Of a DNA stretch of 64,000 bases, positions 27,077 through 63,110 are shown piece by piece. The notes under the pieces are model-generated. The model had not been told where the DNA came from and searched no databases. It saw nothing but the letters and a program-made list of their open reading frames with translations. Numbering within the stretch: position 1 is the stretch's first letter; every line of letters begins with the position of its first letter. Origin of the DNA: Pseudomonadota bacterium (lineage in GTDB: Bacteria > Pseudomonadota > Gammaproteobacteria > Burkholderiales > Burkholderiaceae_C); NCBI GenBank assembly GCA_040384825.1, contig JAZKIO010000060.1, positions 3,559 through 67,558 of the forward strand, read 5' to 3'. Both the position numbers and the translations under genes were made by a program.

Positions 27077-27152
27077 GGCCTGGTAGCTCAGTTGGTAGAG
27101 CAGCGGATTGAAAATCCGCGTGTCGGTGGTTCGATTCCGCCCCAGGCCACCA
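27077..27152 (+). tRNA. tRNA-Phe(GAA)
   Basis: 76-nt cloverleaf GGCCTGGTAGCTCAGTTGGTAGAGCAGCGGATTGAAAATCCGCGTGTCGGTGGTTCGATTCCGCCCCAGGCCACCA; anticodon GAA, encoded CCA. Confidence 0.98.
27108..27152 (+). repeat. attL core (45 bp, tRNA 3' half)
   Basis: TTGAAAATCCGCGTGTCGGTGGTTCGATTCCGCCCCAGGCCACCA, identical to 63066-63110. Confidence 0.95.
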
Positions 27153-27433: not shown

Positions 27434-27571
27434 GTGATTCAGTACTACCCCCAAGCCACCGTCATCCCGACGGTTTTCTTCGCGGCCCATCCGCGGATTG
27501 CAGCCCGCTTTGCGCATCCGGCGACTGGCCGTTTCACCTTCACCGTCGGTGCGGAGGTGAACCATGGCTAA
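27434..27571 (+). CDS. Putative 45-aa leader ORF overlapping the integrase start
   Basis: AGGAG 8 nt before GTG 27434. Reads MIQYYPQATVIPTVFFAAHPRIAARFAHPATGRFTFTVGAEVNHG*; TAA overlaps the integrase ATG region by 8 nt. Confidence 0.5.
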   Translation: MIQYYPQATVIPTVFFAAHPRIAARFAHPATGRFTFTVGAEVNHG

Positions 27572-28931
27572 GGCCTACCAAGAGGGCAGCAACGGCTGGT
27601 CCGTGCGTCCACAAATTGGCGGCGAACGCCTCTATCTCAGTGGCTTCGCGACCAAGACAGAAGCTCAAGAGGAGGCCAAGCGCCTCGCGAACGAGGCCGC
27701 TAAGGCAGGCAGCCCGAAGCACCAGGGCCCGCACCGGACGTCGGTGGCGAAGGCCCTTCTGCAGTGCGCGCTCGAACGTCTGCCTTACCTTAAGAGCGCG
27801 CCGCAGGAGGCACGACGCATCAACCGCTTCCTGCGGGCCGGCGGCTTGCCAGAACTGCAACTGACGCCCCTGACGAAGGCAGACACCCCGGCTGTGCGCA
27901 CGGGACAGCTCTTCGACGTGAAGGTCGACCGCGCAGCCGCCCCAGGGGTCATCCCGAAAGGCCTACACGAACACCGAGCGCGCGTCGCGTCCAAGACGGC
28001 TGACAGCGACATGCGACGAGCCCGGCTCGCTCACCGCAAAGTTGCCTATGTGACGCGCCACGAGATGCAGGAATTCATCAACGCGTTGCGCTCCGACGGG
28101 CTGTCGGCCTCCACCATCGCGCTCGAACAGGCGGTGCTGCGGTCCTTGTTCAATTACACGCACAACTGCTGGCACTGGACGTCTCCGCCCGAGAACCCGG
28201 CGACGGGCCTGAAAATGCCCCAAATCGACAACGGGCGCGACCGCGTCATGTCCGAGGAGGAACAAGCGCGGCTTGACGCGGCGTTGGCCGAATGCAGGAA
28301 CGGAATGGTCGCGCCGATGTTGACGCTCCTGCGCGAGACCGCCATGCGGTCGTCCGAACCCCTCGAGCGCGCCTGCTGGAGCGACGTGGATTGGGCGCGC
28401 AATGTGCTGTCGTTGCGTGACGCCAAGGGCGGCAAGCGCGACGTTCCGCTGTCGCCGGACGCTATCGCTGCGTTGCAGTCCTTGCTCGACCACCAGGCAA
28501 CCTCCTTGCCGAAAGTGTCCGAAGCGATGCGTCGAGCGGCGGTCGCGCCCAATGCGCCCATCGTGCAGATGACTTACGAGGCGCTCAAAGCCGCTTGGAA
28601 GCGTGCGTGCGAGCGGGCCGGCGTGGAGGACCTCCGTCTGCACGACCTGCGGCACACCAGCGCGACCCGAATGGCGTTGAAGACGGGCAACGTGTTCCTC
28701 GTGAAAGCGCTCACCGGTCACAAGACCATGTCGCAGGTGCAGCGCTACGTGAACGTGAAGGCCGATGACGTCGTGAAGGTGATGCACGCGGGACAGGACC
28801 GGGTGAAGCCCGAAATCAATGACGTGGTGGACGACGAGCCGAGTCCGTCGTGCATCGAGTTGGCGTTGACCCCATCGCCCCATAGCAACGTCGTGCATGT
28901 GCGCTTCGGTGGCGCGGGGAGAGCCGCATGA
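27564..28931 (+). CDS. Tyrosine recombinase / island integrase
   Basis: Catalytic set ETAMRSSE (R), DAKGG (K), LHDLRH (HxxR), GHKTMSQVQRY (H,Y); adjacent to attL. Confidence 0.95.
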   Translation: MAKAYQEGSNGWSVRPQIGGERLYLSGFATKTEAQEEAKRLANEAAKAGSPKHQGPHRTSVAKALLQCALERLPYLKSAPQEARRINRFLRAGGLPELQLTPLTKADTPAVRTGQLFDVKVDRAAAPGVIPKGLHEHRARVASKTADSDMRRARLAHRKVAYVTRHEMQEFINALRSDGLSASTIALEQAVLRSLFNYTHNCWHWTSPPENPATGLKMPQIDNGRDRVMSEEEQARLDAALAECRNGMVAPMLTLLRETAMRSSEPLERACWSDVDWARNVLSLRDAKGGKRDVPLSPDAIAALQSLLDHQATSLPKVSEAMRRAAVAPNAPIVQMTYEALKAAWKRACERAGVEDLRLHDLRHTSATRMALKTGNVFLVKALTGHKTMSQVQRYVNVKADDVVKVMHAGQDRVKPEINDVVDDEPSPSCIELALTPSPHSNVVHVRFGGAGRAA

Positions 28932-32114: not shown

Positions 32115-32357
32115 ATGAAAGCAGAACGAACCATCTCCATGAGCCTCCGGGTGACGCCGAAATTTCGGCGTTTGCTCGAGACCGCAGCTGAGCGTGAAAA
32201 CCGCAGCCTGACGAACATGCTCGAAACGTTGCTTCTGGAGTTCTGCGCCACACACGGCATCGAAGAGTCGAAACAGCCGTCTGCTATGGAGAGCTCGGCG
32301 CTTGCGGGGGAGCACGGCAGCGCAGTCTCCCGGCCAAAGGCTAAGCGACGGTCCTAA
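32115..32357 (+). CDS. Small ribbon-helix-helix (Arc/CopG-like) DNA-binding protein
   Basis: TISMSLRVTPKFRRLLETAAERENRSLTNMLETLL is a beta-alpha-alpha RHH pattern. Confidence 0.8.
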   Translation: MKAERTISMSLRVTPKFRRLLETAAERENRSLTNMLETLLLEFCATHGIEESKQPSAMESSALAGEHGSAVSRPKAKRRS

Positions 32358-32388
32358 AAAGAACACCAAGACGAAGCCGACCTCCAAT

Positions 32389-34131
32389 ATGCCATTGCCG
32401 CCGAAATCCCTCTTTTCTCGAAAAGTGCGCCTCCTCGCAACAGCGGTTCGCCAAAGCGGCGCGGACGCCACGACGATGGTCGGTACCTTGCTTGCGTCGC
32501 TTTGCGAGCGCGCGTATCCGGGCCTGCCGGCCAGCGACCTCAAGGTCTCGCGTCGACTGGCGGCGCTTCCCGAGGTGAAAAGCTTTGTCGAGATGCTTGC
32601 AGCGGCGCCGTTCCTTGACGCGGCCTATTGGCTGAGCAGTGCGTACGCCATCTGCACTGGTGATGCGCATCGCAAGTCGCTGGCAATGTTCTTCACGCCG
32701 CCGTCCCTGACAAGTCGACTACTTGATGACCTTGCGGCCAAAGGAGTGAGATTCGACGAAGGAAAGTTCTGCGACCCGGCATGCGGTGGTGCCGCATTTT
32801 TGGCTCCCATCGCGTTGCGGATGAAAGAGCAGTTGGGTGCCAATGGTCTGCGTCCTCGGAAGGTTCTGGAGCATGTAGCAAGCCACATCTTCGGCACCGA
32901 CCTCGACCCGACTTTGTGTGCGCTGTCGAAGCACTTCCTGTTGATGGCGCTCCGAGAAGAAGTGCTCGCGGCAAAGGGCTGGACACCAGAGTTCCAAGTA
33001 AAGCCCGGTGACTCGCTAATCGACCTTTCGAGAAGCTATGGCTCATTCGATGTCATCGCATGCAACTCACCCTTCAGGAAGATGACCGCCGCTGAGGTTG
33101 AGCGGTATAGGCCTGGATTCGATGACGTCATCGAAGGGCAGCCAAATCTGTACGGCCTTTTCATGGCATTGAGTGTGCGGTTGTTGAAGGACCAAGGGGT
33201 TGCCGCGCTGGTAACGCCTACCAGCTTCTTGTCTGGCCAATACTTCCGAAAGGTACGCACTTTTTTGATGAGCAACGTTGACGTGCTCAACATCGGAATG
33301 GTGAGCGACCGCCTAGGCGTGTTCATCGACGTTGAGCAAGAGACGGCGCTCACTCTAGTCCGCCGACGGCAGCAGACGGCGGCGGCAGCGGCGACGGCGA
33401 GCGTTTCAGTCGTCGCGACTGACGGGCAATACGCAAACGTAGGCAAGTGCAACCTCCCAAATTCGGGCGCAGCGTGGCCAATTCCGCGCACGGAAGGTGA
33501 CGTGACGCTGCTTGGCGCTGCAGATTTGGGCCACGCGACCCTCAAAGACTACGGCTACAAGGTCCGCATCGGCAACTTCGTATGGAACCGGGATGCTCGA
33601 CCTGTATACCGAAACCGCACTGAGGTACTGAAAAGCAAAAGTAAGACCGCGATTCCACTTTTGTGGTCGAGTGATATTGGCGCCGATGGCTCCCTGGATA
33701 TCAGCGCCGACCCCAAGGACCGTGACGAACATAGGTTCGTTGACTTTGGCGATGAGTGCCACCCCTCTGTCGTCAGGCGTCCAAGCGTCCTGATGCAGCG
33801 TGTGACTTCCAACGACCAGCCGCGACGACTTGTCGCCGCAGCTGTGCCAGCCGCACTATTGGCAACCTACGGCGGGTATGTCGGCGAGAACCACACCGTG
33901 ATTGTTGAGCAGGTCTCCGACAAGCCGGTTCTCTCGGCGCGAAAGCTTGCCAAGCTGCTCTCCTCTCCAACGGTCGACAGATATTTTCGTTGCATCTCTG
34001 GTGCGACGAATGTCTCCGCCTTCGAACTGGGGCAGCTGGCATTGCCGGACCCCGAGACACTCAAGGCGCTGCTTCGCGAAGGGCTAAGCATGAACGACGC
34101 TGTTAACAAAGCGTTCTTCAAGGGCGCCTGA
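32389..34131 (+). CDS. Amino (N6-adenine-type, gamma-class) DNA methyltransferase with C-terminal TRD
   Basis: MFFTPP (motif X), CDPACGGAAFL (motif I), IFGTDLD, DVIACNSPF (motif IV variant), NLYGLF, LVTPTSFLSG; TaqI/Eco57I-like C-terminal region. Confidence 0.88.
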   Translation: MPLPPKSLFSRKVRLLATAVRQSGADATTMVGTLLASLCERAYPGLPASDLKVSRRLAALPEVKSFVEMLAAAPFLDAAYWLSSAYAICTGDAHRKSLAMFFTPPSLTSRLLDDLAAKGVRFDEGKFCDPACGGAAFLAPIALRMKEQLGANGLRPRKVLEHVASHIFGTDLDPTLCALSKHFLLMALREEVLAAKGWTPEFQVKPGDSLIDLSRSYGSFDVIACNSPFRKMTAAEVERYRPGFDDVIEGQPNLYGLFMALSVRLLKDQGVAALVTPTSFLSGQYFRKVRTFLMSNVDVLNIGMVSDRLGVFIDVEQETALTLVRRRQQTAAAAATASVSVVATDGQYANVGKCNLPNSGAAWPIPRTEGDVTLLGAADLGHATLKDYGYKVRIGNFVWNRDARPVYRNRTEVLKSKSKTAIPLLWSSDIGADGSLDISADPKDRDEHRFVDFGDECHPSVVRRPSVLMQRVTSNDQPRRLVAAAVPAALLATYGGYVGENHTVIVEQVSDKPVLSARKLAKLLSSPTVDRYFRCISGATNVSAFELGQLALPDPETLKALLREGLSMNDAVNKAFFKGA

Positions 34132-34173
34132 CGGCGCGCTATACGAGACAAGTTCGCAAACAATAACAAGAAC

Positions 34174-36927
34174 ATGCCGCCTCCCATTTCCCTTGGAAAG
34201 CGCAACCAAGCTCGCGAAAAAGCGCTAACCGCTCAACACGAGCGTATTCAACAGATTCGAGCCCGTCAGCAGGCGAAGGCTCCCACCGCACCAGGCGTGG
34301 ACGCAGTCCCAGGCGGCGACGACCGGCCGTCTGCACCAACCGCCCCGCCTCTACCTTCCCAACCGTGGAAATCGGTCAAAGCAGGGTCGGCAGGTCTGGC
34401 CTTCGCTTCACGCGCGCAACCTGACGTGCCAGTGTTGGTTCAACCGTGGGCGTCAGCTCTCACTGATGATGTACTGGTGGCTGCAAAGTCTGGCGGCGTC
34501 GTGTTGGCCCTTGTTTGGCCAGCACGGATTGACAGCCTCGTCCCGCTTCACGCCTTGGCGAATCTCGAGCGAAACATGGCCGCGGACCTGTGCGGGCTTC
34601 GAACGCTTCTCTACCCGGGGACCCACACGTCGGCGGGTCCACTTCAAAGCTTCCTGGTCAATCGTGGTGCGCTGACGGACATGTACCGTCGTCTTTGGGT
34701 CGAAGTCGAGGGGAAAACCGTTCGGCGCGCCGCGACGGAATCAGACTCCTTCACAGCGGTCCTCGCAGCGCTGAATGACATCCGAAACCACGCGTCTGAG
34801 GTTGCTCACCCCGCAGCAGCTGAGACGGTTCCCACGTTCGTCTTCTCTGGCGAAGCTTGGCGAACGACTGTCAGCCAGCCGCTGGAACGCTCCCTTCGTA
34901 AGGTCAGCCGGCTCGCTCATCGCCGCCAGATTCGCGACGGTATCAACTCAAACTGGAGCAACTACAAGACCGCACCGGGAGCGCTGCTGGTAGTCCATGG
35001 CGGCCTAGGTCGTCCAGGCTGGAAGGCCGCCTTTGGCGCGCTCAACCAGTCAGGTGTTCTCCCGCCCGAGGTCATGCTGATTGATGCAACGTGGGCTTGT
35101 CAGCGGAATCACCAGAAGGCCTTCGCTCGAATCCCTGAGTTCCTTGCTTACGCGCGCGACCAAGGCACCAGCAAGGCCGGTGCGGTCATCGTCACTGATG
35201 ACCCAAAGACGTTCTTTGTCCTGAGAAAGCGCCTGGCGGACAGCAACTTTCGTGTCGAAGCAAGGGCATACGCGGCGGAGGCGGAACATGTTTTGCTGTC
35301 GCCCGACCCGCGCACACCGGGTTGGAAGCCGGAGACGAAAAGCAACGCCAACTTCACCGTCGGCATCGTCGACCGTGACGCTGCTTCAGTCGCGGTTACC
35401 TTTCACCGCCTTGCTCATGAGGTCGGGGACGACGATGGAGCCGGTCACCATGCTTTGATGGAGGCCTGCCTCTACGTATTGCGCGTCTCGAACATGCCTG
35501 CAGGCTTTACCGACCTCACAGAGTCCGCTGCGGCCGGAGAAATCGACGTCTACTCGATGGAACGAAATTCGTGGCCGTCGGTGCAACTGCGTATCCATGC
35601 CGCTCTCGATGCCGGCGCGATGGGTGACCAGCGCAAGCAGGTCGAAGACGCGCTCGCCAGGGCGCGGTCGCTGATTGCCGCATGGACCGATGCGACACCT
35701 ATGGCTGCTCGACTCCTTAGCATCATCGAGCGACACGCCGCGCACCCCAAGGGTCACCTGTGCCTGGTTTTGCCGAATCAGCGCTACATCCGACTCGCGT
35801 CGCGATACCTGCTGAGGAAGTTGGGTTCGAAATGGGCTGACATAGAACCCGGCTTGGAATGGCACACGCTGGCATCTGCAGGCAAGAACTTGTCACAAGA
35901 AGGTCTGGAGCGCAAGTTTGTCTTCGTCGGAGCAAACATTGATGTGTTGCGCATCTTGCTCGCGCATCCCGACATCCCGCACGGCACAACAGTTCTCATT
36001 GCCTATCGACAAGCGGAATCGCTCGCAGTCACGTTGCGGTCTATGAAGGAGCTCGACGCTCTTAAGCCCTACCGTGGCCGAATCGGGCTTCTTTTGCAAG
36101 AACTGGAGCGGCGACTTAGCGATGTGACGCACCCAGTGCCGAATTTGAGCCGCCTCGGCGACATGTCCTTCACCATGAAGTTTGAAGAGCCGTCCGGTAT
36201 GGACCCGTCCACCGACCAGCATTACTACCGCTTCGACCTCGAAGGCGGTCGCCATGCCTACAGCTCCGGTTGGGTGTATCGCTACGAGCCGCATGAGGAC
36301 CCGTTCTTTCGTCGGACAACAGTGACGCAAATCGAAGTTGGCACGCTGGTGTTCGACATGACTGATGAGCTGCGACGCAAGGTTGAAGAGGCGCTGCATG
36401 TCAACGGCGGCACTCTCGGTTCCGTGGTCCACCCTGAGCGCGCCTTTCTCAAGCTGTACCACGAGGATGTGCAGCGACGTTGCGCAGCAAAGTTTCCCTC
36501 CAGCACTCGCACCGCGCTGGCTGCGGCCATTCACAAGCGGATGCTGGAACTGGACCCCAGCGTTTCTGATTGCCCGGTGGAGCGGTTGACGTATTGGCTC
36601 ACGCTGACAGAGGCCGACACTCGTCCACACGCGCCAAAGCACTCGAAATACTTCAAGGTGTTTTGCAGCGCGCTGGACATCAGCGAATCGGACACGCTGA
36701 CCTACTGGAATTTCATACGAAACGCTCGTCGCCTCAACCAGAACCTTGGTCGGGTCCTGGCCGCGCAGTACGCCGAAATTCTCTTTCAACCTGAGAGCGC
36801 CGTGGCCTACCGAAAAATCCCACTTGAGATGGTCGAGCAGCTTCAGCAGGAAGCGATTCGTTGCGTGTTCCGCGTTGAAGCTGTCCACGCGCCGAAGCCC
36901 GCCCCTGCACCCCGGAAGGCATCCTGA
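34174..36927 (+). CDS. 917-aa protein of unknown function, possibly DrmE-like / degenerate helicase fold
   Basis: Long ORF coupled to the helicase (TGATG overlap). Repeated beta-alpha units but no intact Walker A or SNF2 motifs. The DrmE link is inferred from position and C-terminal pattern. Confidence 0.7.
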   Translation: MPPPISLGKRNQAREKALTAQHERIQQIRARQQAKAPTAPGVDAVPGGDDRPSAPTAPPLPSQPWKSVKAGSAGLAFASRAQPDVPVLVQPWASALTDDVLVAAKSGGVVLALVWPARIDSLVPLHALANLERNMAADLCGLRTLLYPGTHTSAGPLQSFLVNRGALTDMYRRLWVEVEGKTVRRAATESDSFTAVLAALNDIRNHASEVAHPAAAETVPTFVFSGEAWRTTVSQPLERSLRKVSRLAHRRQIRDGINSNWSNYKTAPGALLVVHGGLGRPGWKAAFGALNQSGVLPPEVMLIDATWACQRNHQKAFARIPEFLAYARDQGTSKAGAVIVTDDPKTFFVLRKRLADSNFRVEARAYAAEAEHVLLSPDPRTPGWKPETKSNANFTVGIVDRDAASVAVTFHRLAHEVGDDDGAGHHALMEACLYVLRVSNMPAGFTDLTESAAAGEIDVYSMERNSWPSVQLRIHAALDAGAMGDQRKQVEDALARARSLIAAWTDATPMAARLLSIIERHAAHPKGHLCLVLPNQRYIRLASRYLLRKLGSKWADIEPGLEWHTLASAGKNLSQEGLERKFVFVGANIDVLRILLAHPDIPHGTTVLIAYRQAESLAVTLRSMKELDALKPYRGRIGLLLQELERRLSDVTHPVPNLSRLGDMSFTMKFEEPSGMDPSTDQHYYRFDLEGGRHAYSSGWVYRYEPHEDPFFRRTTVTQIEVGTLVFDMTDELRRKVEEALHVNGGTLGSVVHPERAFLKLYHEDVQRRCAAKFPSSTRTALAAAIHKRMLELDPSVSDCPVERLTYWLTLTEADTRPHAPKHSKYFKVFCSALDISESDTLTYWNFIRNARRLNQNLGRVLAAQYAEILFQPESAVAYRKIPLEMVEQLQQEAIRCVFRVEAVHAPKPAPAPRKAS

Positions 36928-39900
36928 TGACAGTGCTGAGCAAGAGCCCGAAAGCCATCCACGACGCATGCAAAGAAGCGGTCGTCGACAGTCTTTTGAA
37001 CAATCTTTCCGCGCGCTTGGCGGGGCGCGAGGAGTTCTACAAAATCATCTACAAGGGCAAGCCGAGCTCGGTGCTGATGTCCGAATTCATCCTCCCCATG
37101 CCGCCGGATGAGCGCGCAGGCGACGAGGAGGCAAACCCTATTCAAATCAGTGCCCACGGTTTGGACTTCCAAATCCTTCGGTCCGGTGCCTCGGAACGCA
37201 TGAAGGTTTCAGTTCGCGGTGCCGTGTACGTCCGCATCCTCCCGACCGAGGACGAAGTCAAGCCAGGCGGTCCGCTCTACCCGACGTTTCCGCTGACCAG
37301 GGAGGCTGCGCGGGAGCTCCGTTCGCGCATCAAAGACGCATTGGCAGCGCTGCGAACGGAACTTGGCATCACGAAGACAGTGCGCTTGCATCCGGACTGG
37401 CCTGCAAAGAGCGAGGAAGCTCGACGCAAAGCGCATGAGTCGCTTGGCATCCCTTTTGACAACAAGTTGGACCGCTCTCCAGTTGATGATTCTGGCGGAG
37501 ACGACGCACCGCCGGCTCCGTTGGAGGAAGACGACGGTTCCGGCATGCCGAGCGAGGCGCCGCCAGAGCGCGAGGCTCCGGCCGGCGCGACGCTGCCGGA
37601 CGCTCTTGCGCAAGCGATTGATGCACCCCCGAAATGGCTACGTCTCGATTTGGACCTGCCGCCATTTGAGTTCTCTCCTTCGACCTGCGCCGAGGACAGC
37701 GCCAACGCGTCACGCGCGCTGAACGAGGCAATTGCGCTCCAACTCGACCGTTGGGCGACGTCCGAGGAAGAGCCCTACGGCGGCAAGCTGTGGGGATTCA
37801 GGCACGCGGCGCCAATCCGTCCTTCAAGTATCCGCGACTGGAAGGCCTATCTGGCGTCGGTGCGCACCTCGAAGCTCCAGGTTGTTGTTCCCGTAATTGA
37901 ACTTCGCTGGGACATCGAGGCGCTTCCCGACCCTCGCGACCCTGAGCTGATGACCGTCCATGTGGCGTTGGAAAACTGGAGTGCTCCGCCGACGTCGCTC
38001 AACCATAAGGAAGTCGAGCCTTCCCTGTTTCAGCTGCAGGTCAGTTTGTCGCTGAATGTTGACGTGCATCGTCCTTTGCATCTTGACCGCGTGAAGCCGT
38101 CCTACAGGTACAACGAATATTTGCGATACCCGGCCTTGGGCTTCAACGGCGGGGTCACAGCCCACGACGAAGGCTCGACCCGTATCTTGCGAACCACGTG
38201 GACGCCACGTTACGTCCTGCCGCGCATTGTTCCCACCGACTGCGGCGCTGTTCGAAATATCAAAGCTCTTTCCGACCCGGCATCCCTTGCTGGACTCGCA
38301 CCCCTTGTCACAGCGTACTCGGCGTGGCTCGACGAGGTGAAGGACCGTCCTGTTGGCGCCGGCATCGAAGGACCGGATGCAGCGGAGCAACTCGGCCGCG
38401 AGCAGGAAAAGCTACAGCTCGATTTGAACGGTTGGCGAGAGGAGCTTGCCGCAATCCGCTGCGGCCTTGCGATTCTCGAGAAGTCCAAGGCTCACTGGAG
38501 CGGCCCCGGCGAGCAGAAGTCGCCGCTCGGAATCCCGTTTGAAGCTTGGTTGTCGATGAATGCGGCGATGGCGGGTGTCGCGGCGACGAAGGGCTACGAC
38601 GATTGGCGTCTGTTCCAGCTCGCCTTCATCCTCGCGTCTATTCCGACGTTTGCGACCCGAATTCCCGAATTTCACGACTTCTACGACCCCGTTGTATCCA
38701 AGCATGCGAACGCAGTCACCTTGCTCTACTTCGCAACGGGTGGCGGCAAGTCGGAAGCTTTCCTCGGTTTGCTGCTGTTCGTGCTGTTCATCGACAGGCT
38801 CCGGGGAAAACAGCACGGCGTGAGCGCGCTCATGCGTTATCCGCTACGCCTTCTGACCTTGCAGCAGGCGCGCCGAACGTTCGCCGTGATGGGCGCGGGC
38901 GAAGCCGTACGACACGCCCGCCAGCATCGCGGGGAACCGTTTTCACTCGGCTTCTGGGTTGGCGGAGCAAACACCCCAAACTGGCACAAGGAAGAAGGCT
39001 ACTCGGACATTCCGACGGAGCAAGCGGTGCCTCCGTCGCAGGAGCCGTCGTTCCAGAAGACTCAGCCGTACAAGACCTATAAGGAGCGCTGGCAGAAGCT
39101 CGAGGTCTGTCCGTTTTGCAACACGAGAGGCGGCCTGGCCCTTCGTAGAGCATCGGGCGCGGGCGGCAACGCACTGGGCCACTACTGCACCTCTGCGAAA
39201 GAGAAATGCTCTTGGAACGCCCGGCACGACGATATCAAGCCGCTTCCGTTCTACGTGGTGGACGAGGACATCTATGACCTTGCTCCATCGGTGCTGCTGG
39301 GCACGGTAGACAAGCTGTCGGCCCTCGGCCAGTCACAGGGAACCATCCGGAAGTTCTTTGGGATGTTCGGTTTCGCCCCGTTCATTGAGAAGAGCACGGA
39401 ACGACTCTTCATTCCCAGCGTGGCTAAAGACTGGGACGGAGAGCCCGGAGGGACCACCCATGGGCTGTTCCCAACGTTTGCCGACGGCAGGAAGCGGTTT
39501 TTCGACCCGTTTCCATCGTTGCTTATCCAGGACGAGGCCCATCTGCTGGACGAATCGCTTGGCACCTTCGCAGGTTTGTTCGAGTCCGCCCTTGAGGCCT
39601 CATTTAATCGACTGGGGTCGCTATTGCCTGGTCAGCTTTCCTACGAGCCAGGCTCGCAGGTCCGTCGAAAAATCAAAGTCATTGCCGCCTCCGCCACGGT
39701 AAGCGAGCCGCAGCGCCAGATGCGAAACCTGTACCAGCGGGGCAGCACCGTTCAGTTCCCGTACCCGGGTCCGAGCCTTTACACCTCGTTCTACGCGGCA
39801 CCCAGCGGACCAGACGACCGGCCGGAAGACGCCGACAGAAAAGCTCTGGTCACGGACGACATAGAACTGCGCAGCCACTGGGCTCGTGTTTACGCATCGG

Positions 39901-41156
39901 TTCTGACAAACGGACACCGCCATACCGTTGCGATGGCGTCTGTACTCGGGCACTACCATCTCGTAATCACCGGGCTCTACGAGCGACTGCGAAGCGGTGA
40001 CGCGAACGCTCAAGCCCTGGCCCGCGCAGAGCTCATTCGATGGGTGTCGGCAGGTCCGCTCTCTGGGCAACATGTTCGGGTCATCGAAACGTCAGACGCG
40101 GCGACGCTTTTGACGCTGGTCGACCTTCACCGCATTGCCTTGACCTATGTCACAAACAAGAAGGGCGGCGACCAGGTCATCGACACAGAAAAAGTGCAGT
40201 TCGAAAAGCTTCACGGGGCCAACGGCTACACGTCGGCGGTCCTGACTTCAGAGCTTCTGTCGGGCGCAGTATCGGCAGCCGGCATCCAGGACATCGTCCG
40301 CAGGGCGGAGAAGAGGGTCGCTGTCAATGCAGAGTTCCCAGACCCGAACGAGACCCTTCGCTCTGTCATCGCCACGTCTGCGATTTCCCACGGAGTAGAC
40401 GTCGAAGAGTTCAACGCGATGTTCTTCGCTGGTATGCCATCGGACATCGCTGAGTACATCCAAGCGTCTTCACGCGTGGGACGAACTCACGTCGGGTTCT
40501 CATTGCTCGTTCCGGTTCCTCAGAGGCCTCGCGACAGGTTCGTCTTGGAAGTGTTCGACATCTTCCACCGGTTCCTTGAACGGATGATTCTTCCAGCAGC
40601 GGTGGACCGATGGGCCGAGAAGGCACAGGTTCGAGTCATGCCAAGCTTCTTCCAGGAGTACGTATGCGGTGTCCACGCCATCCAGCTGCTTTGCGCTGCG
40701 GAGCCCGACAAGAAGCGTGCGTCGCCGAACTACGCGTACGCCACAGACGTGCGCGACTTCCTGGCGAACACGAAAGCCTTCACCGAAACGGAGCGCTTTA
40801 TGGTCGAGGCGCTTGGCCTTACTTCGCTGCCACCGCCTGAAGGACAGGCGTACTACAGAGCCCGACTGAAGAACGAAATCGGCAACTACCAGAGCGACCT
40901 CGGTGTTCCGATGCACGTGAACGGTACGCGACTGAACAAGTTCTTCGAGAGCCGGGCGAAGAATCTCCGACCAATGACATCCCTGCGCGACGTCGATGAG
41001 CCGGGGGTCATCTTCGAGTCGAAGCACGATGCCTCGTACAAGGAGGCGCCGGCCGATGCCACCGCAAGAGCGATGCTGTTTATTCGGCGCGGCTCTGGCG
41101 CAGATATCGACGATACCGAACCGAGAATCGAGGCTAAGGAGGGCGACTCGAAATGA
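36927..41156 (+). CDS. drmA: DISARM DrmA-like SF2 helicase
   Basis: Q motif WRLFQLAF, Walker A FATGGGKSEAF, YPLRLLTLQQ, GTVDK, QDEAH, ASATV, ATSAISHGVD, YIQASSRVGR. Confidence 0.88.
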   Translation: MTVLSKSPKAIHDACKEAVVDSLLNNLSARLAGREEFYKIIYKGKPSSVLMSEFILPMPPDERAGDEEANPIQISAHGLDFQILRSGASERMKVSVRGAVYVRILPTEDEVKPGGPLYPTFPLTREAARELRSRIKDALAALRTELGITKTVRLHPDWPAKSEEARRKAHESLGIPFDNKLDRSPVDDSGGDDAPPAPLEEDDGSGMPSEAPPEREAPAGATLPDALAQAIDAPPKWLRLDLDLPPFEFSPSTCAEDSANASRALNEAIALQLDRWATSEEEPYGGKLWGFRHAAPIRPSSIRDWKAYLASVRTSKLQVVVPVIELRWDIEALPDPRDPELMTVHVALENWSAPPTSLNHKEVEPSLFQLQVSLSLNVDVHRPLHLDRVKPSYRYNEYLRYPALGFNGGVTAHDEGSTRILRTTWTPRYVLPRIVPTDCGAVRNIKALSDPASLAGLAPLVTAYSAWLDEVKDRPVGAGIEGPDAAEQLGREQEKLQLDLNGWREELAAIRCGLAILEKSKAHWSGPGEQKSPLGIPFEAWLSMNAAMAGVAATKGYDDWRLFQLAFILASIPTFATRIPEFHDFYDPVVSKHANAVTLLYFATGGGKSEAFLGLLLFVLFIDRLRGKQHGVSALMRYPLRLLTLQQARRTFAVMGAGEAVRHARQHRGEPFSLGFWVGGANTPNWHKEEGYSDIPTEQAVPPSQEPSFQKTQPYKTYKERWQKLEVCPFCNTRGGLALRRASGAGGNALGHYCTSAKEKCSWNARHDDIKPLPFYVVDEDIYDLAPSVLLGTVDKLSALGQSQGTIRKFFGMFGFAPFIEKSTERLFIPSVAKDWDGEPGGTTHGLFPTFADGRKRFFDPFPSLLIQDEAHLLDESLGTFAGLFESALEASFNRLGSLLPGQLSYEPGSQVRRKIKVIAASATVSEPQRQMRNLYQRGSTVQFPYPGPSLYTSFYAAPSGPDDRPEDADRKALVTDDIELRSHWARVYASVLTNGHRHTVAMASVLGHYHLVITGLYERLRSGDANAQALARAELIRWVSAGPLSGQHVRVIETSDAATLLTLVDLHRIALTYVTNKKGGDQVIDTEKVQFEKLHGANGYTSAVLTSELLSGAVSAAGIQDIVRRAEKRVAVNAEFPDPNETLRSVIATSAISHGVDVEEFNAMFFAGMPSDIAEYIQASSRVGRTHVGFSLLVPVPQRPRDRFVLEVFDIFHRFLERMILPAAVDRWAEKAQVRVMPSFFQEYVCGVHAIQLLCAAEPDKKRASPNYAYATDVRDFLANTKAFTETERFMVEALGLTSLPPPEGQAYYRARLKNEIGNYQSDLGVPMHVNGTRLNKFFESRAKNLRPMTSLRDVDEPGVIFESKHDASYKEAPADATARAMLFIRRGSGADIDDTEPRIEAKEGDSK

Positions 41157-43354
41157 GCAAAGCAAAAACGATGAGCCGCTCGCGAAATCAAATCGCGAAC
41201 TCCTACGCTCCCGAGAGCTTTTTCACGTTTGAAGGAGGCAGCGGCGCGTGCATTGCCCACTCCGTACCGACGGAGTCCATCGAATTGGTGGATGCGACGA
41301 AGGAGCAGATTTTTGAGCGCATCAATGAGTTGGGTCGGGCATGGTTCGACGCCGCCATGGGCTGTCGAGATGCGGACGCTACTCAACCTCGTGTCTCCGC
41401 TCCTCAATGCGTGGACCCAAAGATGCTGGACAACACGAGGTCTGACTTCCAGGCTCCTGGTATAGAGCGTGTCCACCTGTGCCGTCCCTCCAGTATGGGC
41501 TACACGCCTGCGCCTCTTTCGTTCGTATGCCGGGCCTGTGGCTTGTTTCGCGATTTCACCACGTTGCGAGAGCTTGATGCGGCGATTTCGGCACTGAGCA
41601 CTACCAAGTGCCGAAAGCACGATGGTCCTTGTGATTGGGAACAGCTGGATGTCATCTTTGTTCATTGGTCCGGCAATTGGACCCAGCCGTTTCCCGGACA
41701 GTACCAGTGGAGCGACGTCGACGCCAAGGTCGTGAAGCGCAGGGACAAGTGCATCTGTGGTCATGAGGACTTCCGGCTCAATCGCCGGGCCGCTGGCATC
41801 GGCGACTGGTTCTTTGAATGTGCCAAGTGCGACAAGCCTCTCTCGCCGAAGTGGCGCCAAAACGATGAAGCCAGCCTACGCTTCATCGGGCCCGCTTTCA
41901 CGGAAGCCAGGCGGACTGAGGTGAGCATGCAGGCGGCGCCTTATCGCGCGTCCAGCGTCTACTACGTCAAGTCTGACCTCTTCATCGACTTCAAGGACGG
42001 CGGCCGCGACCTGCTGACGCGCCTGCGTCCGGGGCGCGAAGACGCGCTTAAGGATTTCGTGGCCAAGCAGTATGGCTTCGGCATATCCGAAGTGACCGAC
42101 GAGGAGGTGGAAGCAGCGTGCGCGGGCCGTCCTGACTGCGAGAAGGAATGGCTCGAGTTTCAGAGCAGCTCAGGTGCGATTAAGACCGGTGAAGCAATGG
42201 CCGCGACCGTGTCGGAGCCGATTCGAAGCGGCATTCTGACAATGTTGGCGACGGCGTACGAAGGTAAGAAGCGCATCATCGACGACCTGAGGCGTCGCGC
42301 CATTCTCCTTCCAAAGATTAGTCTTCCTGTGCCCTTGCTGGAGCGAATTCGACATCGACAGGTTTTATTTGCGTCCAAATTCGACCCCTTCCGGCTGGCA
42401 GTCGAGCACGCAACGTTGGACGCTACGAGACTTGCGGTGGAGAGTCGTGTGAACGGAAAGAAGCCGTATGTATCTTTCACTCGCCTCGATGAAGACCTCG
42501 CTCCCGAGACGGAAGTCGAGCGAGATGCTCTCCAGGCGGAGACTCAAGTAGCACTGACGAGGCTGGGCCTGGCGGATATGGGGCTCATTCGTGAATTCGA
42601 CCTCTGTCGGTTCTCGTTTGGCTATTCGCGCATGGAAGGGGGCCCCGTGCTGCACGACAAGCGTGGCATGAACATGCCGGTTCGCCTGAACATGTTCCCG
42701 CCGGTGATGCACAACTCGTCGTCTAAGAACCCAATCTATGTGGTCCAGCAAGGCAACGAGGCAATCTACGTCAAGCTCAAGCCTGAGCTAGTGCGGGCCT
42801 GGCTCTCCGACTTGGGCTGCCCGGACATGTTCAGCCTCAGTGGGGACGAAAAAATTGGCGCGGGAATTCTGGCTTGCTCTCAGCAGATGTCACCGTTCCT
42901 CGACAAGTTGCCCGAAAGCGATACCCCGCCGACCTACTTCTACCTGTATACGCTCCTGCATAGCTATTCACATCTCTTGATGAAGCACATGTCGGAATAC
43001 TCCGGCCTCGATATGGGGTCCTTGGGCGAGTACATTTTCCCGGCAGACTTGGCTTTCGTCGTCTATCGAAGCGGCACGACGATGGACCTGGGCAACCTCT
43101 CTGCCATGTGGCGGAACTCTGGGACGGCGATGCTGAACGCCATGCTCTCCCTGAAGGCGACGCAGTGCGGCACCGGTTCACTGTGCTCTCATCGCGGGGG
43201 TGCGTGCCCGGACTGCATCATGGTTCCGGAAACGTCTTGCGTCGCTAGCAACAAACTGCTGTCACGCTCGGTTCTTCGGGGCACTGGAAAGCGGCCGAAA
43301 TTCGATACCCGCCCCGAAGGCATCCGCGGCTTCTTCGAATACACGGGCGGGTGA
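41153..43354 (+). CDS. drmB: DISARM DrmB-like DUF1998 protein
   Basis: LLHSYSHLLMK, YIFP, GNLS and C-terminal C..C...GACPDC..VPETSC...N..LSR Zn motif; ATGA overlap with the helicase. Confidence 0.88.
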   Translation: MSKAKTMSRSRNQIANSYAPESFFTFEGGSGACIAHSVPTESIELVDATKEQIFERINELGRAWFDAAMGCRDADATQPRVSAPQCVDPKMLDNTRSDFQAPGIERVHLCRPSSMGYTPAPLSFVCRACGLFRDFTTLRELDAAISALSTTKCRKHDGPCDWEQLDVIFVHWSGNWTQPFPGQYQWSDVDAKVVKRRDKCICGHEDFRLNRRAAGIGDWFFECAKCDKPLSPKWRQNDEASLRFIGPAFTEARRTEVSMQAAPYRASSVYYVKSDLFIDFKDGGRDLLTRLRPGREDALKDFVAKQYGFGISEVTDEEVEAACAGRPDCEKEWLEFQSSSGAIKTGEAMAATVSEPIRSGILTMLATAYEGKKRIIDDLRRRAILLPKISLPVPLLERIRHRQVLFASKFDPFRLAVEHATLDATRLAVESRVNGKKPYVSFTRLDEDLAPETEVERDALQAETQVALTRLGLADMGLIREFDLCRFSFGYSRMEGGPVLHDKRGMNMPVRLNMFPPVMHNSSSKNPIYVVQQGNEAIYVKLKPELVRAWLSDLGCPDMFSLSGDEKIGAGILACSQQMSPFLDKLPESDTPPTYFYLYTLLHSYSHLLMKHMSEYSGLDMGSLGEYIFPADLAFVVYRSGTTMDLGNLSAMWRNSGTAMLNAMLSLKATQCGTGSLCSHRGGACPDCIMVPETSCVASNKLLSRSVLRGTGKRPKFDTRPEGIRGFFEYTGG

Positions 43355-44229
43355 TGTCGGCGCAGCTGAGTGCCTTCGAGAAGAACGTAGTGCGGCTGCT
43401 GGCTCCCCGAGCGGGCGTCGCTGCGAAAATTCTGGATGCCTGGGCTCGCGTTCCGACATCAACCGAACAGTCAGCGCGAATGCTCACAGGACTGGCTCAG
43501 TTGGGGCTGACTGAGGAGCGTGCGGCTCAGGAGGTGCTGGTATTAGCTTCTGCCGCCGGCCTTCTCGTTCAAGGAACTGGCGGCTTCAGTCCTGGTCCAA
43601 TTCCGGCCGGGACGTTCCAACGCCTAGCCCTCGCCCTCTTCGCGGTCGAGCACTACAAAGCTGCTGTTCACGAGGACGCCACCACGGCAAGGGTGGTGCT
43701 GACGAAGCCACCTCGACCTTGTGTCCTCGAAACCAAGCTTGCCGAGTTAGGCTGGCGAACGTTTGACCTTGAGCCGACCGAGCACGCGTTCAAGCGGATG
43801 GTGTACGAAGCCCAGTCTAGGGTCGTAGTGATGACGCCGTTTTTCGACGTGACCGGTGCACTTTGGCTAAAGGAGCTCTTCGAGGGCGTGTCTGAGCAAG
43901 TGACAAAAGTCTTGGTATTGCGGAGCCTCGAAGAGCCAACGCGGCAGGACTATCCGAAGGGCTTTGATGCGATTGCGTCGTGGCTGTCGGCGGAGAAGGT
44001 CGAGGTTTACAACTACTCGATTCCCCGTGCCCCGGGACCCGGCCGGGAGACCTTCCATGCCAAAGTTGTGCTCTGTGACAGTGATGTTGCCTACGTCGGG
44101 TCGTCCAACGTGAATGCAGCATCGTTGGAACACTCGATGGAGATGGGCGTCGCGATGCGCGGACGGGCCGCTCGAGACGTGGCCACAATTGTCTCGGCTG
44201 TACTCGTGTCCGCCAGCCGCATGTTCTGA
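43351..44229 (+). CDS. drmC: DISARM DrmC-like phospholipase D family nuclease
   Basis: Single HKD motif FHAKVVLCD...YVGSSN...SMEMG; overlaps the drmB stop. Confidence 0.88.
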   Translation: MMSAQLSAFEKNVVRLLAPRAGVAAKILDAWARVPTSTEQSARMLTGLAQLGLTEERAAQEVLVLASAAGLLVQGTGGFSPGPIPAGTFQRLALALFAVEHYKAAVHEDATTARVVLTKPPRPCVLETKLAELGWRTFDLEPTEHAFKRMVYEAQSRVVVMTPFFDVTGALWLKELFEGVSEQVTKVLVLRSLEEPTRQDYPKGFDAIASWLSAEKVEVYNYSIPRAPGPGRETFHAKVVLCDSDVAYVGSSNVNAASLEHSMEMGVAMRGRAARDVATIVSAVLVSASRMF

Positions 44230-44504
44230 AGCGAGCGCCTTTCATCCGGCTTCAGGTGCGTGGAGGCGCCAACGGTCAGCGCCCTTAGCTCGCGCATTCG
44301 TTGGCAGGCATCGCGCAGCATCTGGCAGGCCAGGCACGTTCCAACAGGCCGAACCGCCCTTCCTAGCGCTTCCCCCGGAAGGGAGGATAAAAAAGCTCGC
44401 TAGACGCTGGGCGAAGCGTTTTCGCCCGACATCCCTTGATATTGAGAACCTATATTGACTACCTGCATAGCGGCCACCCTTCAATCAAAAGGGTGGCAAC
44501 AAAA

Positions 44505-46493
44505 ATGCAGGAAAAGTCAATGAATTCAGTAAGTTATGAAATTCGCAGGTCTTTCAACCCGTCGCCTATACCTGCTTCGCAGGCGACAAAAATAGGAGGT
44601 CGGGCACGGAGAAGACACGTGGCTCAGCCGCTTACCTATCAAGACCTGCTCAACGGACAAGACAAACGGGTGCTCATGGGCACCGTCCACCCCCAGACCG
44701 CTGCGAATCGCGCTACAGCGCTACGCGTGTTCATGGGCTTTCTTAAACTTTCTGCTGAAGACCCGGTGGGGCAGGAATTTCGCGCCATGTTTCTGGCGCG
44801 CTGTCATGAACTCAGTGACCACCTCCGTACAGCCGGAAAAACGCCGCGGAACGTTGGCAACACGCTGTCGGCCTTGAAGTCGTGGCGACCAGTGGTCGTT
44901 GCCATCGACACCGACCATGCCATATCTGGCGACAAGCTCACACCCTTCGCTCAGGCCTTCCGTGCGTTGCTGAATGGAACGCCAGTGAAGCTGTTGGCAC
45001 GAACTATCGACGCGGCTCCCGGCATGCTCTACGGCTGGCAGGCGGGAAAGAATCCGCGACTGAGTAATTCCAAGTACCTGACCCGGGTGGAGCGCTACTT
45101 TGGGCTGCCCGATGGTGAGCTATCGACATTGGCGGGCTTTCGTCACGGTTCGTACGAACCGAAATCTGTTGGCGAGCCGCTCAAGATTGCGTACCGAGAC
45201 GGCCTCAAGGCAAAGAGCCACTACGTCTTCAAGCCCGCATTGGACTCTCCACTGCGAAAGCAGTGGCACGAACTGCTGGTCTACAAGACGGCTCGGGTGC
45301 CGACTCTCATTCGCAGCAACAAAGGCGTTTGGCGCCTATCCCCGCACGACATCGAGACCGAAAGGGAAGGGAACTGGTACCGGTTCCTGAATGGCTCTGA
45401 AGTGCCCACTGCCCATCCAAGGTGGAATCAGCTTGCGTCCTTCCTCGGATGGCTCGCGATGCCTGTACCGGCAGGAGGCATGGGTGTTCCTGAATCGGAA
45501 CTTCACACTTTGGCCTGGTTGACTCACTCAGCGTACGCTGAGAAGTATGTCGACTGGCTAATCGCGCGTGCCGGGAACCTCGTGAACGGCTCGGTAATCG
45601 AGTTTCTTGCGTTCATCAAGTCCATGACGCGTCCAGTCACCGGGTACTTGTGGCAGTTGCCCTCGTTTGCGAAAACGCTTCCGCTCGAGTTGCCTACCGA
45701 AAATTGGCAAGAGCACGCGGAGACGGCATGGCGTACGGCAAATGCGTCGGCTGTGGCGCTTCGGCCCTTGCTGGTACAAACTCGGGACCCCTCGGAACCA
45801 ATGAAGCACATCCTGGATACGGATAGCCCGCTGGAGTTCGTAGCGGACATGGTGCAGCGAATGCGGGCCGACCGTCCGTTGGGGCGCGCTCCATACACTG
45901 AGGCTAGGTGGGCGCGCAACGTCGCTCTTATCAAGTTCCTCGTCTCAAATCCTCTGCGCGTGCGCAACGTCTGCACGTTGACTTGGCGCGATGACAACTC
46001 TGGCCTTCTCTACCAGCGTCCGGACCGTTCGTGGTGGGTCCGCGTCCCAAAAGTGCACTTCAAGAACTTCAAGGGTGCAGCGTCAGACAACGAGTACGAC
46101 ATGCCGGTCCAGGAAACGGTTTGGCAAGACTTGGAGCGCTACTTGACGCTGCGGCCAAGATTGTTGAACGGTCCAAGTGACTACCTCTTCATTGGCGCCG
46201 GGCGCGGTCCTAGAGCTACTCTGTCGAAGCAGCCCTGGGAAGATTTGTCGCGCACGGTCGAGGACCTTACTCGAAAGTACTTGTGGCGCTGCCCTGGAAT
46301 CGGAACGCACGCGTTTCGTCACTTGGTCGCCACCGCCATCATCAAGGCGTCCAAGAATTCGGACTACAAGACCGCGGCCTTGGTGCTCAACGACCGCCTG
46401 TCCACAGTCGAGCGAAACTATGCGCACTTGAAATCGTCAGATGGGGCCAAGCGCATGGATGAACTGCTTGGGGACGTTCTGCGTCGCATGTAG
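44505..46493 (+). CDS. Large second tyrosine recombinase with internal XRE-like HTH (start uncertain, 44436-44520)
   Basis: NPLRVRN (R), FKNFK (K), THAFRH (HxxR), LNDRLSTVERNY (Y). Central VKLLARTIDAAPGMLYGWQAGKNP..SKYLTRVERYFGL HTH. Confidence 0.8.
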   Translation: MQEKSMNSVSYEIRRSFNPSPIPASQATKIGGRARRRHVAQPLTYQDLLNGQDKRVLMGTVHPQTAANRATALRVFMGFLKLSAEDPVGQEFRAMFLARCHELSDHLRTAGKTPRNVGNTLSALKSWRPVVVAIDTDHAISGDKLTPFAQAFRALLNGTPVKLLARTIDAAPGMLYGWQAGKNPRLSNSKYLTRVERYFGLPDGELSTLAGFRHGSYEPKSVGEPLKIAYRDGLKAKSHYVFKPALDSPLRKQWHELLVYKTARVPTLIRSNKGVWRLSPHDIETEREGNWYRFLNGSEVPTAHPRWNQLASFLGWLAMPVPAGGMGVPESELHTLAWLTHSAYAEKYVDWLIARAGNLVNGSVIEFLAFIKSMTRPVTGYLWQLPSFAKTLPLELPTENWQEHAETAWRTANASAVALRPLLVQTRDPSEPMKHILDTDSPLEFVADMVQRMRADRPLGRAPYTEARWARNVALIKFLVSNPLRVRNVCTLTWRDDNSGLLYQRPDRSWWVRVPKVHFKNFKGAASDNEYDMPVQETVWQDLERYLTLRPRLLNGPSDYLFIGAGRGPRATLSKQPWEDLSRTVEDLTRKYLWRCPGIGTHAFRHLVATAIIKASKNSDYKTAALVLNDRLSTVERNYAHLKSSDGAKRMDELLGDVLRRM

Positions 46494-49757: not shown

Positions 49758-50290
49758 CGCATGCCTCCACGCACGCATGCGGCCTTGGACCGGGCGAGAC
49801 AACGACGGGGGAAGGGAAGATGAACCGGGTTCAGACGTGTCACTGTGCGCTCCTGAGCGAGGGCAGTCGCAACACAAAACGGTTCCGCGTGACAACGATG
49901 TCACTTACACCGCCTCACGTGCAGTCCGCACGTGAGGTTGGTGGCAGCCCCGCTGCCATCCCTGTCGGGCTGGTCGGTGGCTTTGCGGCCCCGGCTTTCG
50001 CGCGGGTGTGCCCTGAATATGTCCAGTCTACAACTTGTTGCGCTGCAAGCGGGGCCAAATCGCTCAGCGTCATGCTCCGTATCAAGCAAAGGACAGTCAG
50101 CCGCGTGACGGCCCGACGTCAAGCTCGGACGACGCCTTTCGGAACGGGCAGTTGCAGTGCCGCTGCGACAGCACAGCAGGTCTGAAGGTCCAGACATGGG
50201 GGAGTGACGGGTGGGGCATGAGCGGTAAGAATCTGCCCGCAGTGGCCCCGCACGACAGAGCGCGCGAGTACAGCACAAGGAGACGGTTCA

Positions 50291-51139: not shown

Positions 51140-51176
51140 ACTCGACGTTGCGACGCAGACCAGGGAGAAATTTTCA

Positions 51177-51890: not shown

Positions 51891-51893
51891 TCG

Positions 51894-55536: not shown

Positions 55537-55784
55537 CAGGGGTTCCTTTGAGTACGGCCATGGCAGAAGACATCTGCGCTCGGATGCTGGGTCTCTCGGG
55601 CTGAAGTTGCTACCCCTATATCGAATAGACGCCAGCCGCGGGATTCTCCCGGGAAGATTGCCACCGCCGCACCGCAAAGCGGCTACGTCAAGTTCACGGC
55701 GTAACCATGAAAAAACTCGACTGCCCCGCTTCCCAAGCGTAGCCAATCCGATAGAGTGGTGCTCGAACGTTCAAGGGGGCCCAG

Positions 55785-57601: not shown

Positions 57602-57762
57602 ATGACCGAAGGGTCGAGTAGAGCGCGAATCCCCGGCTGTTCCTCGGATTGATGCCTCCAGCTAGGACGCAGACATTTGTCTGCTTGGCACGTCGATGTG
57701 GGACTGCGCCTGCAGCCGTGCGAGGAGCTCTCCTTCGCGGTCCAGCCCCCTTCGATAGCACG

Positions 57763-58499: not shown

Positions 58500-58524
58500 C
58501 GTCGTTGCCCCGGGCGAACTCCGC

Positions 58525-63065: not shown

Positions 63066-63110
63066 TTGAAAATCCGCGTGTCGGTGGTTCGATTCCGCCC
63101 CAGGCCACCA
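63066..63110 (+). repeat. attR core (duplicated tRNA-Phe 3' half)
   Basis: Exact 45-bp copy of 27108-27152. Confidence 0.95.

Follow-up and report, generated by a model that had tools for sequence, protein, structure and literature searches.

A probable third DISARM architecture on a tRNA-Phe island of a Rhizobacter-like betaproteobacterium

Introduction

Two classes of DISARM are distinguished in the work of Ofir 2018, as summarised in 10.1101/2021.12.28.474362 and PMC9142583. Class 1 comprises the SNF2 helicase DrmD, the N6-adenine methyltransferase (MTase) DrmMI, DrmA, DrmB, and DrmC, as in Serratia sp. SCBI; class 2 comprises DrmE, DrmA, DrmB, DrmC, and the 5-methylcytosine (5mC) MTase DrmMII, as in Bacillus paralicheniformis. 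The published PADLOC definitions require DrmD and DrmMI for type I and DrmE and DrmMII for type II. For class 1, PMC9142583 describes DrmAB as autoinhibited by a trigger loop and activated by DNA with a 5' overhang, and 10.1101/2021.12.28.474362 describes methylation as an off-switch and drmC as dispensable. How DISARM tells foreign from self DNA, and what DrmD and DrmE do, are both unresolved. Here, we analyze an operon of five genes within a stretch of 64,000 nucleotides (positions 3,559 to 67,558 of contig JAZKIO010000060.1, GenBank assembly GCA_040384825.1; this whole stretch is referred to below as the window). The operon is of a known kind, DISARM, with an unnamed variant layout, and is not categorically new; it probably represents, in a copy that looks functional, a third and so far unnamed architecture of DISARM, the restriction-like system against phages and plasmids. 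This architecture is widespread, and the present copy rides as cargo on an island of 36 kb at a tRNA-Phe gene, its host being a betaproteobacterium similar to Rhizobacter. Full-text literature searches turned up neither a paper that names a third class of DISARM nor one that describes these genes together; the family is plausibly one of the uncharacterized DISARM-like branches on the YprA tree of Bell et al.

Results

Gene content and boundaries of the operon

The initial annotation of this DNA had proposed an MTase gene, a gene for a 917-residue protein, and a DrmA/DrmB/DrmC-like core, beginning at position 32115. An open reading frame (ORF) map confirmed this anatomy apart from the first boundary. 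Five co-directional genes lie in the order MTase-P917-DrmA-DrmB-DrmC, where P917 denotes the 917-residue protein, and all five ORFs are intact and full length. The last four genes, from P917 to DrmC, do overlap stop-to-start as had been described, by 1, 4, and 4 nt, and a 42-nt gap separates the MTase and P917 genes. The genes, with the evidence for each, are as follows.

32115..32357, + strand: ribbon-helix-helix (RHH)-like protein of the CopG/antitoxin type, 80 aa (separate ORF, weak Pfam matches)
32389..34131, + strand: MTase, 580 aa, N6-adenine, gamma-class Eco57I/N6_Mtase type (Pfam, PADLOC, homologue-aligned start)
34174..36927, + strand: P917, 917 aa, the family-defining accessory protein (AlphaFold2 model, Foldseek; without profile matches)
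36927..41156, + strand: DrmA-type superfamily 2 (SF2) helicase of the YprA family, 1409 aa (PADLOC, NCBIfam, PDB, motifs)
41153..43354, + strand: DrmB-type partner, 733 aa (PADLOC, NCBIfam, PDB, four-Cys cluster)
43351..44229, + strand: DrmC-type single-HKD nuclease of the phospholipase D (PLD) family, 292 aa (Pfam, PADLOC, NCBIfam, HKD motif)

Position 32115, which had been taken as the start of the operon and of the MTase, belongs to the separate RHH-like gene. The open frame of the MTase reaches back to 32302; homologues align from the ATG at 32389, most likely the true start, giving a protein of 580 aa. The 80-aa ORF at 32115-32357 meets stops in the MTase frame and is not the MTase N terminus. 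The 80-aa protein itself gives weak, sub-threshold Pfam matches to TacA1 and HicB. Homologues of its gene lie just 5' of the MTase gene in three related loci (L053, 66%; L054, 63%; and L027, 50%), and the gene is missing from most others; within this sub-lineage its product probably controls transcription of the operon. A scan for promoters and terminators gave no signal exceeding shuffled expectation.

Matches to the DISARM core

The initial annotation had read the last three genes as a helicase, a DUF1998 protein, and a PLD nuclease in DISARM core order, and the order is borne out by matches to DrmA, DrmB, and DrmC models. The helicase matches the PADLOC DrmA model at 1.4e-88 and the NCBIfam model DrmAS at 6.5e-102, and its sole match among PDB sequences is a DrmA (7S9V_A, 2.8e-49); its GGGKS and DEAH motifs are intact, the motifs are kept in 39 of 40 loci, and the protein would be the motor of the system. 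The DrmB-type partner is matched by PADLOC DrmB at 2.3e-15 over C-terminal residues 522-712 only, and its sole PDB match is a DrmB (7S9V_B, 5.6e-4); it has Cys-rich modules in its N-terminal part and a DUF1998-like C-terminal four-Cys zinc cluster, CGTGSLC..RGGACPDC, conserved in 36 of 36 loci. DrmC matches Pfam PLDc_2 at 2.3e-10, PADLOC DrmC at 8e-11, and, as its best NCBIfam model, DrmC_I at 5.9e-16, and its HKD motif, HAKVVLCDSDVAYVGSSN, is intact (pattern HxK(x4)D...GSxN). The DrmC gene is missing downstream of DrmB in about one-third of the complete related loci; DrmC is an optional component of this architecture. Judged by sequence, the locus has what marks a DISARM core: DrmA, a separate drmB gene beside drmA, DrmC after drmB, and an associated DNA methyltransferase.

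The partners specific to either described class were sought with the same profile libraries, using a locus on a Nocardia plasmid (L050) as the class 1 yardstick and a DrmMII-bearing, class-2-like locus on a Lactiplantibacillus plasmid (L051) as the second. These positive controls behaved as expected: L050 returned a 1040-aa SNF2 DrmD and a 1354-aa MmeI-like DrmMI (PADLOC E=0 for both), and L051 returned its DrmMII (PADLOC 2.6e-138). No DrmD or SNF2 match was obtained among the operon or scanned island proteins, and the DrmD_b model NF038318 gave matches of only 19-23 bits elsewhere in the genome. Likewise, no C5-MTase or 5mC DrmMII was present in the operon or scanned island ORFs, and no DrmMI model was among the best 25 of the 45 PADLOC matches of the MTase. 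The statement that the locus has no SNF2 gene and no 5mC MTase thus holds across the operon and scanned island ORFs, and the locus fits neither PADLOC type because the required DrmD/DrmMI or DrmE/DrmMII pairs are not matched. That it fits neither described DISARM class, as first proposed, is supported by the DrmD, DrmMI, and DrmMII models, which have working controls and give no operon match (for DrmMI, among the best 25 of the 45 matches of the MTase). DrmE models matched neither P917 (E<=10) nor ten of its distant relatives (E<=0.01), a negative without a positive control, because the DrmE model matched nothing anywhere; the DrmE hidden Markov model (HMM) PDLC02635 had no match in a six-frame search of the host genome, in 301 genomes of the same phylum, or in six plasmid records.

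The class-2-like yardstick, plasmid pMK02 of Lactiplantibacillus plantarum, has a layout of its own to note. In its DrmMII-X-DrmA-DrmB locus, the gene 5' of drmA (L051:5649-8054) encodes an 801-aa protein that matches no PADLOC model, the DrmE model included, and has only eight cluster-level relatives; it is a further unnamed occupant of the "DrmE slot."

Recurrence and lineage of the gene order

The initial annotation had raised the question of whether the five-gene order exists in other genomes; it recurs widely, with DrmC optional. A word-indexed search with P917 gave 177 matches, mostly about 50% identical and all unnamed, and an exhaustive P917 profile search gave 252 clusters (50% identity) at E<=1e-3. 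The same gene order is present in more than 40 loci, which is more than chance. At those of loci L001-L041 that are long enough to judge, the order MTase-P917-DrmA-DrmB is kept and DrmC is present in about two-thirds; the exception is L041, in which no homologue of the operon's MTase was detected. The hosts of these loci are mainly Burkholderiales and gammaproteobacteria, with a few from other phyla, and include Achromobacter, Burkholderia multivorans, Limnohabitans, Cupriavidus, Ralstonia, Pandoraea, Pseudomonas indica, Stutzerimonas, Dyella, and Rhodanobacter, along with scattered metagenome-assembled genomes labelled Synechococcus and Trueperaceae. The order is also kept at two loci with very distant P917 relatives (L042 and L043; profile E 1e-15 to 1e-26) and on the Polaromonas plasmid pPNAP03, where P917 is 25% and DrmA 45% identical. 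Among species-representative genomes of the host's order, 3 of 401 carry a member of the P917 family; such rare, patchy occurrence is usual for defense genes, unlike housekeeping repair.

DrmA identity is 35-45% across the deepest members of this architecture and 22-30% to the DrmA of L050 (class 1), L051 (class-2-like), and two Bacillus loci. In a maximum-likelihood tree, which holds 11 sequences only and has long branches, the DrmA proteins of this architecture form a separate clade with 100/100 support. Median pairwise identity within the family is 68% for the MTase and 65% for P917, compared with 79% for DrmA and 82% for DrmB; the first two proteins are the faster-evolving pair. The locus represents a coherent lineage, co-inherited and set apart by a DrmA clade of its own, rather than a recent mosaic, and "hybrid," the label first given to it, is therefore not the best word.

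Two other relatives differ in layout or integrity. On plasmid pRL10 of Rhizobium johnstonii 3841 (L048), the genes are rearranged as 662-aa protein-DrmA-DrmB-PLD-MTase, with an MTase of the same family; the 662-aa protein resembles the C-terminal two-thirds of P917 (hhalign probability 96%), and the first RecA-like lobe is apparently missing. On a metagenome contig whose P917 is 83% identical (L054), the MTase, DrmA, and DrmB are each split into several ORFs and P917 and DrmC are intact; either the copy is decaying or the long-read assembly contains frameshift errors.

P917, the family-defining accessory protein

P917 had been described as motif-less, and for profile libraries this stands: no model of Pfam, NCBIfam, or PADLOC, those for DrmD and DrmE included, matches it, for PADLOC even at E<=10. 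The description does not extend to the fold, which is predicted to be that of an SF2 helicase from which the ATPase motifs are absent. An AlphaFold2 model of P917, built on 34 homologues, has a mean predicted local distance difference test score (pLDDT) of 80.8, and its top Foldseek matches in the PDB are the SF2 helicase cores of RIG-I, LGP2, MDA5, Hef, FANCM, and Dicer-2, with Chd1 and CHD4 lower in the list; the whole list lies at E 4e-7 to 1e-4 with a probability of about 1.0 and at sequence identities of 8-12%, with RIG-I, Hef, and FANCM at E 4e-7 to 1e-5. The secondary structure agrees with the Foldseek result, having alpha/beta lobes at about residues 86-400 and 526-650 with a helical domain at about 400-525 between them. 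A Walker A motif is missing in 33 of the 34 family members (the lone match is probably incidental), a DExH/DExD motif is present in 0 of 34, and the loop at the P-loop position reads WPA(K/R)x(D/T)S. The most conserved part of the protein is its C-terminal portion of about 260 residues, a small beta-barrel followed by helices; the C-terminal 263 aa modelled alone (pLDDT 74) had no significant PDB match. Because it combines a helicase-like fold, no ATPase motifs, and a C terminus without a PDB match, P917 is best described as a predicted ATPase-dead helicase-fold protein with an uncharacterised C-terminal module. Two candidate matches were set aside: MukF, the only return of a PDB sequence search with P917 (E 0.07), was judged spurious, and a Hint-like barrel fragment of 53 residues, the best match for the C-terminal 263 aa, was not significant (E 0.2).

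The methyltransferase

The MTase is of the adenine type, as the initial annotation had it: it matches Pfam Eco57I at 5.8e-11, Pfam N6_Mtase at 3.5e-10, and, over nearly its full length, the PADLOC type II model MTase_II (PDLC03338) at 6.7e-168. PglX models match it marginally (PADLOC, 5.7e-6). It carries a C-terminal target-recognition region and a motif I of DPACGGAAF, and we infer that it is the self-marking enzyme of the system. Its catalytic motif IV reads NSPF (window positions 33064-33075, residues 226-229), a form common to its closest relatives in L053 and L054 (94% and 82% identical); motif IV reads NPPY in 37 of 38 more distant loci and NPPF in the remaining one, and the MTase of L055 (69% identical) has NPPF. 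NSPF has been passed down in genes that are otherwise intact, and for this reason we regard it as a variant that the lineage tolerates.

The island and its other cargo

Both boundaries of the element that carries the operon lie within the window, and its landmarks are as follows.

27077..27152, + strand: tRNA-Phe (ARAGORN)
27108-27152, + strand: attL, the 3' 45 nt of tRNA-Phe (repeat match)
27564..28931, + strand: tyrosine integrase of the island (Pfam Phage_integrase, 3.2e-23)
44436..46493, + strand: large 685-aa tyrosine-recombinase-like protein, directly 3' of DrmC (Pfam Phage_integrase, 4.1e-6)
63066..63110, + strand: attR, a perfect 45-nt copy of the tRNA-Phe 3' end (direct repeat)

The guanine-plus-cytosine (GC) fraction is about 0.60 across the island, compared with about 0.72 in the host genome. 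This low-GC segment, the tRNA-Phe gene and perfect 45-nt repeat at its ends, and the integrase inside it identify an integrative island of about 36 kb; one integrative element takes up the entire right half of the window. A GC content of 72% might suggest an actinobacterial host, but this reading was rejected: TopB encoded in the window is 98% identical to that of Rhizobacter spp., which makes the host a high-GC betaproteobacterium. The island is foreign by its GC, yet inside the usual host range of the cassette. Homologues of the 685-aa recombinase adjoin the cassette in L053 (43%) and L054 (31%; both by tblastn), and the recombinase may travel with this sub-lineage. At related loci, the neighbors are of defense type and include SIR2, Cap4, HipA toxins, type I restriction-modification systems, BrxR, patatin, and integrases.

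Directly after the 685-aa recombinase, on the - strand at 46842-49904, is a gene for a 1020-aa fusion of GGDEF (8e-30), SIR2 (5.5e-13), and OGFr_N (5.5e-11) domains, a combination unusual for a defense-island setting. Three adjacent small genes at 50291-52346, with a weak OST-HTH/LOTUS match, DUF6946 (6e-65), and DUF6998 (5e-46), are perhaps further island cargo. The distal island (54718-62700) holds non-defense cargo of the same element: genes for a PEP-CTERM protein, a GAF protein, an alpha/beta hydrolase, and two histidine kinases, one of which is a hybrid containing a receiver domain.

Discussion

The operon is a horizontally transferred, real five-gene relative of DISARM. Of the two possibilities first offered for it, a new DISARM subtype or a related helicase-DUF1998-PLD system, the evidence supports an unnamed third DISARM architecture, and by analogy with the described classes the operon would act against phages or plasmids. 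Several observations weigh against this assignment. The NCBIfam scores of all three core proteins are below the curated cut-offs (DrmAS, 342 bits against 950; DrmB_fam, 41 against 240; DrmC_I, 58.7 against 133), and far under them; in keeping with this, RefSeq records of related loci give only generic names ("DEAD/DEAH box helicase," "hypothetical protein," and "phospholipase D-like"). A Pfam search of DrmB (E<=0.01) did not return DUF1998, and the DrmB match is weak; the claim of a DUF1998 gene is upheld by the DrmB models and the 7S9V_B match and not by the Pfam domain itself. The fold of P917 rests on a predicted model with low global template-modelling scores (0.15-0.38), and its role is pure inference. 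NSPF in place of NPPY makes MTase activity uncertain. Finally, no hypervariable recognition segment was found in an alignment of the MTase family from 36 loci, in which windowed identity stays at 0.58-0.75 almost throughout and drops, to about 0.5, in the first 80 residues alone. Type I, type IIG, and BREX methylases and many other self/non-self marking enzymes have a hypervariable target-recognition segment, unlike this MTase family. Since such a segment is missing, most members of the family may recognise the same or similar motifs. A test for co-variation between the MTase recognition domain and segments of P917, DrmA, or DrmB was dropped, as an MTase without a hypervariable region leaves no signal to correlate.

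If the operon works along the lines of class 1, the MTase would mark a host motif with N6-methyladenine (m6A) and so label self DNA, and DrmA and DrmB would form an autoinhibited translocase complex, as in class 1, that serves as the motor against invading DNA and is activated by it through 5'-overhang or unmethylated substrates. P917, whose gene occupies the slot directly 5' of drmA that other classes fill with accessory proteins of their own, would take the place of DrmD or DrmE as a non-catalytic DNA-binding adaptor or sensor that links the activation of DrmAB to the methylation status or the ends of DNA. DrmC would be a dispensable accessory nuclease, and the loss of its gene in about one-third of loci fits the dispensability of drmC described in 10.1101/2021.12.28.474362; the RHH-like gene would be a lineage-specific transcriptional controller. 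A bolder form of this scheme makes the locus a third class in its own right, with P917, as an ATPase-dead, RIG-I/Hef-like shell bearing a structurally new C-terminal module, acting as the self/non-self discriminator that binds DNA ends or reads the m6A state of the MTase's motif and gates release of the DrmA trigger loop, a passive sensor replacing the active SNF2 motor DrmD; we put this forward tentatively, as an idea that may well prove wrong.

Part of the evidence could also be accommodated by a class 2 system in disguise, in which P917 is an extremely diverged DrmE and the 5mC methylase has been swapped for an N6-adenine one. P917 does occupy the position of drmE in class 2, immediately 5' of drmA, and an MTase-X-DrmA-DrmB order is also found on the Lactiplantibacillus plasmid with its bona fide DrmMII and its 801-aa protein. 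When the families of these two slot proteins were compared by hhalign, they gave a co-linear C-terminal alignment that was not significant (E 0.087); there may be fold-level kinship among proteins encoded upstream of drmA. The order on Rhizobium pRL10 is class-2-like as well, and its first protein is the one homologous to the C-terminal part of P917. However, DrmE models match neither P917 nor its ten distant relatives, and PDLC02635 finds nothing in the genome of the window, although both are control-free negatives; moreover, the DrmA clade is separate from class-2-like DrmA and the best NCBIfam match of DrmC is the class 1 model. We therefore consider a disguised class 2 system unlikely.

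It seems quite improbable that the operon is a decaying or silenced remnant in which the change from NPPY to NSPF has ended methylation-dependent function. The near-uniform NPPY of homologues and the fragmented MTase, DrmA, and DrmB of the close relative L054 would suit such a remnant, but all five ORFs in the window are intact and full length with conserved motifs, NSPF is common to two relatives and hence an inherited lineage trait rather than a fresh lesion, and the fragmentation of L054 may be an assembly or sequencing artefact of a metagenome contig. In addition, class 1 DISARM survives methylase loss without autoimmunity (10.1101/2021.12.28.474362). We give very little credence to a non-immune role, whether YprA/MrfA-type DNA repair or maintenance of the mobile elements on which the cassette rides. 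The YprA family does include the repair helicases MrfA and MrfB (10.1101/2025.09.15.676423), and the cassette is always on mobile DNA, on islands and plasmids. The helicase, however, matches DrmA rather than MrfA, with DrmA as its sole PDB match, and separate genes for the helicase and DUF1998 typify the DISARM branch. A DNA methyltransferase strictly accompanies the cassette, a PLD nuclease does so often, and the sporadic presence of the cassette within the host's order is defense-like.

A third DISARM architecture thus remains our preferred reading. Standard annotation, with its PGAP/NCBIfam cut-offs and PADLOC definitions of classes 1 and 2, leaves these loci unnamed, so DISARM-type immunity would be under-counted in Burkholderiales, including genomes of Achromobacter and Burkholderia multivorans. 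The compact, conserved layout, with one small adenine methylase and a partner of non-catalytic helicase fold, offers a simpler setting for the question of how methylation is linked to DrmAB.

Among known systems, class 1 DISARM shares the most with this operon: a core of overlapping drmA, drmB, and drmC genes arranged in that order, an adenine-type methylase, DrmAS and DrmC_I as best NCBIfam matches, a dispensable or optional DrmC, and, as the only PDB relatives, the class 1 DrmA and DrmB of 7S9V. It differs in that the SNF2 helicase DrmD belongs to class 1 and none was found here, whereas the predicted ATPase-dead helicase-fold protein of 917 aa is absent from class 1; in its methylase, a 580-aa enzyme of the Eco57I type here compared with the MmeI/PglX-like DrmMI of about 1350 aa (pfam13659); and in its DrmA (1409 aa) and DrmB (733 aa), which are longer here, 22-30% identical, and in a separate clade. 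With class 2, the operon has in common a large protein of unknown function encoded immediately 5' of drmA and a set of five genes with one methylase, but the methylase here is of the N6-adenine type instead of 5mC, P917 is not recognised by DrmE models (without a positive control), and DrmA falls in another clade than class-2-like DrmA. P917 itself resembles RIG-I-like and Hef/FANCM SF2 helicases in its predicted two RecA-like lobes and helical insertion domain and differs from them in having neither Walker A nor DExH and in its extra C-terminal module. ARMADA, too, is built on a YprA-family helicase, is related to DISARM, and comes with an adenine MTase. Its helicases, however, have an OB-CON-DUF1998 module fused to them as well as a BrxA-like insert, and their partners are an active BrxHII/RapA helicase and an MTase of the PglX type; in the present operon, no BrxHII match was obtained, the helicase and DUF1998 have separate genes in the manner of DISARM, and there is a PLD nuclease. 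The profile comparison with DISARM, Dpd, and Druantia suggested in the initial annotation separates the operon from the last two: DruE and DpdF models match the helicase C-domain only marginally (2e-6 and 1e-3) and no partner genes of either system are present, whereas the core matches DISARM models.

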